From a virus (Duplodnaviria; Heunggongvirae; Uroviricota; Caudoviricetes), in IMG/VR virus record IMGVR_UViG_2671180631_000002: 25,614 nt of DNA; one strand, written 5' to 3'. A program made the position numbers. How positions within the stretch are numbered: the stretch's first letter is position 1; each line of letters starts with the position of its first letter. Of the stretch, positions 18,901 through 21,900 are shown in pieces.

Positions 18901-21900
18901 ACCGTAACAGCGGATGACGGCAGTGAGCGGCTGGTCAGCACGGCCCGGACGACGGAAACCACTTACCGCTTCACACAACTGGCGCTGGGGAACTACAGGC
19001 TGACAGTCCGGGCAGTAAATGCGTGGGGGCAGCAGGGCGATCCGGCGTCGGTATCGTTCCGGATTGCCGCACCGGCAGCGCTGTCGCGGATTGAGCTGAC
19101 GCCGGGCTATTTTCAGATAACCGCCACGCCGCATCTTGCGGTTTATGATCCGACGGTACAGTTTGAGTTCTGGTTCTCGGAAAAGCGGATTGCGGATATC
19201 AGGCAGGTTGAAACCAGCGCGCGTTATCTTGGTACGGCACTGTACTGGATAGCCGCCAGTATCAATATCAAACCGGGCCATGATTATTACTTTTATATCC
19301 GCAGTGTGAACACCGTTGGCAAATCGGCATTCGTGGAGGCTGTTGGTCAGCCGAGTGATGATGCATCCGGTTATCTGGATTTTTTCAAAGGCGAGATAGG
19401 GAAAACCCATCTGGCTCAGGAGCTGTGGACGCAGATTGATAACGGTCAGCTTGCGCCTGACCTGGCTGAAATCAGGACGTCCATTACGGATGTCAGCAAT
19501 GAAATCACGCAGACCGTCAATAAGAAACTGGAAGACCAGAGTGCGGCAATTCAGCAGATACAGAAGGTTCAGGTTGATACAAATAATAACCTGAACAGCA
19601 TGTGGGCTGTGAAGCTGCAGCAGATGCAGGACGGACGCCTTTATATCGCGGGTATTGGTGCCGGTATTGAGAACACCCCTGACGGCATGCAGAGTCAGGT
19701 GCTGCTGGCGGCGGACAGGATTGCGATGGTTAATCCTGCGAATGGCAACACAAAACCGATGTTTGTTGGTCAGGGCGATCAGATATTCATGAACGACGTG
19801 TTCCTGAAACGCCTGACGGCCCCCACCATTACCAGCGGTGGAAATCCATCGGCATTTTCCCTGACTCCGGACGGAAAGCTGACCGCTAAAAATGCGGATA
19901 TCAGTGGCAGTGTGAATGCGAACGCCGGGACGCTCAACAATGTCACGGTAAATGAAAACTGTACGATTAAGGGCATGCTGGAGGCGACTCAGGTCAGAGG
20001 TGACTTCGTTAAAGCTGTATCCAAATCATTTCCGAAACAGGCTGGTACGTGGGGTAACACGGAAACACCAAACGGGACGGTTACAGTCACCATAAGCGAT
20101 GATCATAACTTTGACCGCCAGATTATTATTCCGCCCATTATTTTTAACGGTATAGCGTATGACGATCCGGGGAGCGGAAATAACCCAGGAGGCACGCGAT
20201 ACACGGGTTATGGTTTTGAAGTTCGCAAAAACGGCGTATTAATCGCATCCAGAGAAACTAAAGGTGCCATTCCCGGTAGTTACAGTGCAGTTATTGATAT
20301 GCCTAGTGGTGGTGGTAGCGTCACTCTGGAGTTTAAGATTTTCCAGAAAGGCAATCAGGGGGCAGGCAATATCACCGACTGTACGGTGATTGTGACCAAA
20401 AAAGCGGCTTCCGGCATCAGTATTCGTTGAAATATTTATAACCCCAATAAATGGCGTCAGGAATGACGCCTTTTTTATTGCAGAAAAGCGAGAGGTAATT
20501 ATGCGTAAAGTTTGTGCAGCCATTTTGTCCGCAGCCATTTGCCTGGCCGTATCCGGTGCGCCTGCATGGGCGTCTGAACATCAGTCCACGCTGAGCGCGG
20601 GGTATCTTCATGCCCGGACCAACGTTCCCGGCAGTGATGATCTGAACGGGATTAACGTGAAATACCGTTATGAGTTTACGGATACGCTGGGGCTGGTGAC
20701 GTCATTCAGCTATGCAGGAGACAAGAATCGCCAGCTGACCCGTTACAGCGATACCCGCTGGCATGAAGATTCCGTTCGTAACCGCTGGTTCAGCGTAATG
20801 GCGGGGCCGTCTGTGCGCGTGAATGAATGGTTCAGCGCGTATGCGATGGCGGGTGTGGCTTACAGCCGTGTGTCGACTTTTTCCGGGGATTATATCCGCG
20901 TAACTGACAATAAGGGGAAAACGCACGATGTGCTGACCGGAAGTGATGACGGTCGCCACAGCAACACGTCTCTGGCGCACTGACGGTTTCATCGTGGGTG
21001 TCGGTTATAAATTCTGATTAGCCAGGTAACACAGTGTTATGACAGCCCGCCGGTTCAGGCGGGCTTTTTTGTGGGGTGAATATGGCAGTAAAGATTTCAG
21101 GTGTACTGAAAGACGGCACAGGAAAACCGGTACAGAACTGCACAATCCAGCTGAAAGCAAAACGTAACAGCACCACGGTGGTGGTGAACACGCTGGCCTC
21201 AGAAAATCCGGATGAAGCCGGGCGTTACAGCATGGACGTTGAGTACGGTCAGTACAGCGTTATTCTGTTGGTGGAAGGATTCCCGCCGTCACATGCCGGG
21301 ACCATCACCGTGTATGAAGATTCCCGACCCGGTACGCTGAATGATTTTCTCGGTGCCATGACGGAGGATGATGCCCGTCCGGAGGCACTGCGCCGTTTTG
21401 AGCTGATGGTGGAAGAGGTGGCGCGTAACGCGTCCGCGGTGGCACAGAACACGGCAGCCGCGAAGAAATCAGCCAGCGATGCCAGCACATCAGCCCGTGA
21501 GGCGGCAACCCATGCGACTGATGCTGCAGATTCAGCACGTGCAGCCAGCACGTCAGCCGGACAGGCCGCTTCGTCGGCTCAGTCAGCGTCTTCCAGCGCA
21601 GGAACGGCATCAACAAAGGCCACTGAAGCCTCAAAAAGTGCTGCCGCTGCAGAGTCCTCAAAAAGCGCGGCGGCTACCAGTGCCGGTGCGGCGAAAACGT
21701 TAGAAACGAATGCGGCAGCGTCACAACAATCAGCAGCCACTTCTGCATCCACCGCGACCACGAAAGCGTCAGAAGCTGCCACCTCAGCCCGGGATGCGTC
21801 GGCTTCAAAAGAGGCGGCAAAATCATCAGAAACGAACGCATCATCAAGCGCCAGTAGCGCAGCTTCCTCGGCGACGGCGGCTGCAAATTCTGCGAAGGCG

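Follow-up and report, generated by a model that had tools for sequence, protein, structure and literature searches.

A lambda-like J gene with a phage 21-type shaft and a 434-type receptor-binding domain

When the tail-tip gene of a lambda-like prophage parts from lambda towards its 3' end, three questions follow: where the replacement begins, from which phages its segments are known, and whether the product still addresses LamB. Here they concern J in a 25,614-nt stretch of a virus of the class Caudoviricetes (IMG/VR record IMGVR_UViG_2671180631_000002); the whole of this stretch is called the window below. A sequence-only reading had placed a swap of the C-terminal receptor-binding region of J at 19380-20430 and had proposed that the prophage probably targets a receptor other than that of lambda. 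The swap itself was confirmed: the receptor-binding domain (RBD) is 41% identical to that of lambda gpJ, and from 19987 onwards no DNA similarity to lambda remains.

A lambda-type J gene in a lambda-like late region

The window represents late-gene DNA of a lambda-like prophage, with its open reading frames in the order nu1, A, W, B ... H, M, L, K, I, J, lom, stf, tfa. From nu1 to J the window is collinear with lambda at 97% DNA identity (97.1% between window 1171-17398 and lambda 13-16240, 94.8% across window 17696-19429), and homologues of lom and stf follow J. The first 1170 nt, upstream of the lambda-like cos/nu1 region, have no lambda counterpart; they hold a gene on the strand opposite to J whose product is a DUF1398 protein (Pfam E = 3.3e-43); it may be cargo carried at the prophage's right end.

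The J ORF has 1255 codons, 99 of them masked, and the true product has 1165 residues. Pfam searches of the product returned Phage-tail_3, Ig_J, Ig_J_second, Phage_Tail_Tip and Ig_GpJ_C, all above the cut-offs; the last of these, described as the C-terminal receptor binding domain, matched with E = 2.4e-25. The order of domains (hub domains, two Ig/FNIII domains, tail-tip fibre and C-terminal Ig-like RBD) is that of the gpJ family. J belongs to this family, as its domain architecture, gene position and C-terminal fold all match lambda gpJ (NC_001416; structures 8IYK, 8XCG, 8XCI, 8XCJ and 8XCK). Identity to lambda gpJ is 97.6% over ORF residues 1-245 and stays close to complete from residue 346 to about 895.

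The masked codons lie under a run of N that stands for lambda 16241-16267 (27 nt, peptide PSNYNPQTRQ). Relatives of the window were 16 IMG/VR contigs recovered by an exact 100-nt scan of viral contigs. Four of them (L011, L012, L013 and L023), 99.7-99.8% identical to the window, carry these same 27 nt, and in L013 (99.7%) J is an uninterrupted ORF of 1165 residues reading ...RILQVPSNYNPQTRQYSGIWDG... across the site. Since 297 N replace 27 nt, the numbering of the J ORF is inflated by 90 codons. The three N-runs of the window measure 297, 284 and 55 nt, and the relatives have 27, 28 and 275 nt in their places; besides lengthening J, the runs put stf out of frame and interrupt tfa. We take them to be gaps or masks of arbitrary length rather than biology, because their lengths bear no relation to the sequence in near-identical relatives. 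A 270-nt in-frame insertion hidden under the run in J was considered and rejected, as the site measures 27 nt in lambda and the relatives, and the lengths of the other two runs are arbitrary as well. In three further contigs (L009, L016 and L022), overlapping pieces align to the window's J at differing identities (~92% and ~99%); these records may hold J more than once, in tandem or otherwise, or prophage fragments that were concatenated.

Downstream, J is followed by a terminator-like hairpin and a lom-like gene, as in phage 434 (OL657226), whose record annotates a terminator at the matching place. The lom gene is truncated: its product matches the Pfam profile Ail_Lom over positions 1-159 of 199, and the gene is short by about 83 nt relative to 434, to the phage Stx2a_WGPS6 (NC_049945; hereafter WGPS6) and to the IMG/VR contig L024. 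The deletion appears real for the window's lineage, because near-identical IMG/VR relatives, for example L011 and L013, carry it too; Lom is probably non-functional. If its N-run is ignored, stf is seemingly one long gene, while stf of laboratory lambda is frameshifted. Identity to lambda is 88% over its first 1 kb, and the distal part, with Phage_fiber_2 repeats and a Collar domain, is similar only in patches (80-83%), so that the side fibres probably differ in specificity too. A remnant of the tfa chaperone gene follows.

Table 1. Features of the window in and around J. Positions are those of the window; ORF residues include the 90 surplus codons.
Feature	Position	Strand	Remarks
DUF1398 ORF	258-683	-	upstream of the lambda-like cos/nu1 region
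J (tip attachment protein / central tail fibre)	16663-20430	+	from ORF list and translation
Lambda-type J body: hub domains and two FNIII/Ig domains	16663-19340	+	~97% identical to lambda gpJ
N-run inside J	17399-17695	.	297 N; arbitrary length (gap or mask), no insertion
Phage 21-type shaft (alpha-helical shaft and upper beta-prism)	19341 to ~19790	+	28 residues longer than in lambda
Conserved lower fibre segment (lower prism)	19768-19938	+	ORF 1036-1092; common to all alleles
RBD, 434 (h434) type	19939-20427	+	ORF 1093-1255, last 163 residues
Terminator-like hairpin 3' of J	20453-20476	+	GGCGTCA-GGAA-TGACGCC, then TTTTTT; read from sequence
lom (Ail/Lom outer-membrane protein), truncated	20501-20983	+	160 residues instead of 199
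stf	21076-24421		one long gene if the N-run is ignored
Second N-run	22375-22658		284 N
tfa remnant	24421-24782		split by the third N-run
Third N-run	24538-24592		55 N

Three-part composition of the divergent region

The J C-termini of lambda, 434, 21, phi330, WGPS6 and Gifsy-1 were aligned, and breakpoints were located in a five-way DNA alignment; the fibre segments are named after the lambda tail-fibre structures (PMC11101478). The window departs from lambda at nt 19341, so the start proposed from sequence alone was right to within about 40 nt, and the C-terminal peptide was also as given there. The proposed match to lambda up to about residue 1000 held for the N-terminal part (~97%) but reached too far, as divergence starts at ORF residue 896 (lambda residue 806); the divergent span covers 360 residues rather than the last 250 or so. 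Divergence holds for this span overall but is not uniform, because it contains a 57-residue island (ORF 1036-1092) that is 91% identical to lambda. At the DNA level, relative to lambda, the window carries 84 extra nucleotides (19437-19499 and 19535-19555), falls to 78.9% identity over 19599-19986 and has no detectable similarity over 19987-20430.

The shaft (ORF 896-1035) is 97% identical to that of phage 21 (OL657228), which has the same 28-residue extension, 99% identical to that of WGPS6 and 61% to that of phi330, whereas identity to lambda and 434, both with the short lambda-type shaft, is 51% and 52%, each with a 28-residue gap. The lower prism is similar throughout (91% to lambda, 89% to WGPS6, 88% to 434, 86% to phage 21 and 82% to phi330). 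In the RBD the likeness moves to 434, the 'h434' allele, with 94% identity, and to WGPS6 with 97%, both gapless; identity is 41% to lambda (13 gapped columns), 47% to phi330 (11 gapped columns) and 44% to phage 21, and the C-terminus of Gifsy-1 J (12% in the RBD) is too different for useful alignment. Across the last 832 nt of J, the window and 434 share 88% DNA identity. J is thus made up of a lambda body, a phage 21-type shaft and a 434-type tip. The swap cannot be put down to chance, because the segments brought in have counterparts in other phages with 94-99% amino-acid identity.

The same composite, with a 21-type shaft and a 434-type RBD, is found in WGPS6 J, whose last 375 residues are 97% identical to those of the window. 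WGPS6 is a Pankowvirus, and in such phages the remainder of the genome, with capsid genes, immunity and cargo included, need not be related to lambda.

Within the conserved stretch, at about 19780-19795, the window's DNA turns from 21-like to lambda/434-like, and the conserved lower fibre segment is likely to be a recombination site. Engineered gpJ chimeras have been fused in this lower segment, at lambda residue 964 (PMC11338833). J is best read as a natural three-part recombinant with its joints in or beside conserved stretches, at which lambdoid prophages can trade modules by homologous recombination.

A composite gene in an assembly with gaps could also have been made by the assembler, by joining two prophages into a chimera at the N-run in J. 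The three N-runs do have lengths that fail to match the underlying 27, 28 and 275 nt, and many E. coli genomes carry several copies of J. All breakpoints (19341, ~19790 and 19987), however, lie in one unbroken block, 17696-22374, which excludes such a chimera, and the independent contigs L011, L012, L013 and L023 carry the same composite J, gapless and at 99.7-99.8% identity. An artefact is scarcely conceivable on these grounds, and we treat the composite as a real gene.

A 434-type tip and its probable receptor

By alignment the RBD is of the 434 type, being near-identical to 434 J over its full length with no insertions or deletions and sharing its C-terminal peptide. It does not belong with the lambda-type, LamB-binding allele, defined by identity to gpJ residues ~990-1132, nor with the phi330/A8 type, from which its identities and gapped columns separate it. 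Two OmpC-binding alleles described in PMC11338833 were tried as closer counterparts and rejected: A8, because it is the phi330 RBD that matches A8 and the window's RBD is distant from phi330, and 1A2, because the C-terminal peptide differs (...KKATAGITIS). Pairwise alignment to lambda and other lambdoid J proteins, which had been proposed as the check on the swap, gave no near-identity to lambda through the C-terminus but near-identity of the RBD to 434 J.

An AlphaFold2 model of ORF residues 1080-1255 was all-beta, with a mean pLDDT of 77.5. Its best matches in the PDB were 9wcb_F (A8 gpJ with OmpC), 8xcj_F (lambda gpJ with LamB), 8xck_F and 9wca_F, with E values of about 1e-15 and TM scores of 0.67-0.68; the Foldseek match to the Ig-like fold of the lambda gpJ RBD had E = 1.2e-15 and TM 0.68. 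As modelled, the C-terminal domain takes the fold of the solved gpJ RBDs bound to OmpC and LamB. A sequence search of the PDB returned the same gpJ entries (9wcb, 8xcj, 8xck and 9wca) and no solved 434-type tip. The A8 gpJ chimera and phi330 J (9WCA/9WCB), for which OmpC use is experimental, gave the best match both in structure and in PDB sequence, but they belong to another allele class, with contact loops that are shorter and different.

Phage 434 is the textbook OmpC phage, and it was reportedly Hantke, in 1978, who described OmpC as its receptor. In the sequenced hybrid lambda h434 imm21, J has the lambda sequence as far as about nt 2115; from about nt 2116 onwards the gene is derived from 434, two single-base differences aside. 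Between lambda and 434, all homology in J is lost at J nt 2970 (residue 990), and this is the only non-homologous part of the gene. What transfers the host range thus lies in a segment in which lambda and 434 differ grossly only in the RBD. Lambda equipped with the 434 tail-fibre gene binds OmpC, the receptor of 434 itself (review PMC3509688), and the study of phi330 refers to the 434 central fibre as OmpC-targeting (PMC12502783).

Because its RBD is 94% identical to that of 434, a user of OmpC, the window's J is expected to bind OmpC rather than LamB, with a probability that we put at roughly 0.8. The earlier expectation of a different receptor is supported by homology to this extent. In the mechanism we propose, the trimeric J tip would dock on OmpC, itself a trimeric porin, in place of LamB, and binding would trigger a lambda-like rearrangement of the fibre and tail tip that opens the tail for DNA ejection; by analogy, the trigger mechanism would be the same as in lambda. 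The literature yielded no experiment on exactly this allele, and 434, from which receptor use is extrapolated, differs by nine substitutions; nor was an experimental determination of the receptor found there for phages that share the allele (mEp332, mEp460, the PhiR series, the ev phages and Ayreon). K-12 is, however, the listed host of PhiR26_1 (strain MG1655; RBD 99.4% identical), and of PhiR34_1 and Ayreon (96-97%), and the allele therefore works on the laboratory strain.

Allele class alone does not always fix the receptor, as the case of phage 21 illustrates. Its RBD (J at 1694-5176 of OL657228) is of the phi330/A8 type, the OmpC-using class, and yet phage 21 uses LamB natively and gains OmpC by a single mutation (PMC11336670). 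By the same token the window's tip might have kept LamB despite the swap, as phage 21 uses it with a non-lambda tip. The phage 21 RBD is, however, only about 44% identical to the window's, while the window's own RBD is close to 434, the allele with classical OmpC use and with host-range transfer by the end of J, and it stands far from the LamB-binding domain of lambda, without DNA similarity. LamB use thus appears highly improbable, and OmpC remains the receptor that we favour.

A finer possibility is that a 434-type tip has been retuned by loop substitutions, so that it accepts just certain OmpC variants or a different porin, for instance OmpF. The nine substitutions relative to 434 fall at ORF residues 1096, 1098, 1122, 1126, 1127, 1137, 1226, 1228 and 1233. 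Four of them (1126, 1127, 1137 and 1233) sit in loops that align with the phi330 loops T918-Y921 and A1015-P1020; OmpC contacts are predicted for these loops in phi330 and 434, on the basis of an AlphaFold3 model of the interface (PMC12502783). All nine positions vary within the allele class, for example G, R or W at 1233, as does position 1167 (D, S or T). Single J mutations add the use of OmpC or OmpF in phage 21 (PMC11336670), and the OmpC-binding gpJ variants A8 and 1A2 accept different OmpC variants (PMC11338833). The hairpin aligned to the one that in phi330 is said to point into the OmpC barrel (PMC12502783), however, is identical in the window and 434, and the K-12 hosts of PhiR26_1, PhiR34_1 and Ayreon also speak against retuning. 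Retuning is unlikely, if less so than continued LamB use, and plain OmpC dependence is the reading carried forward. We would entertain only as a doubtful conjecture that Q1126, A1127, N1137 and G1233, polymorphic in thousands of prophages, mark an arms race with the surface loops of OmpC; were this so, 434-type sub-alleles would each fit different OmpC variants and occasionally another porin.

Distribution of the allele and consequences for annotation

Among 50,697 phage records, an RBD at least 90% identical to the window's was present in 74, none fell at 60-90%, and 169 lay below 60%. The 74 include 434-like laboratory phages, cdtI, mEp460, Ayreon, Evi/2B8 and the PhiR series, together with many Stx1a-, Stx2a- and Stx2c-converting phages such as 2851 and WGPS6; comparison of the RBD alone gave 96-99.4% identity for 2851, cdtI, mEp460, Ayreon, Evi/2B8 and PhiR26_1. 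In a database of 5.8 billion proteins, full-length RBD matches among the best 120 listed fell into two groups, one with 88% identity or more and one with 48% or less. By these identities the RBD allele class is discrete. The RBD DNA occurs in 2,114 of 5,426 complete E. coli genomes (~39%), in up to 7 copies per genome, and many E. coli prophages match the composite J as a whole at about 97%.

The swap is therefore real but common and long known: it is the classical h434 host-range module, and an instance of ordinary lambdoid mosaicism. Two points had escaped the sequence-only reading, namely that the divergent part belongs to a three-part mosaic and that its tip is a common classical allele, not one particular to this prophage.

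Beyond annotation the finding has little importance. The tip should be annotated as 434-type and probably OmpC-dependent rather than LamB-dependent. The last ~150 codons of J allow a prediction, by allele class, of the receptor that a lambdoid prophage uses. The same modular joint has already been used to retarget lambda-based delivery particles (PMC11338833). For the host, lamB mutations or maltose repression would not protect against a phage with this tip, whereas loss or variation of ompC probably would.
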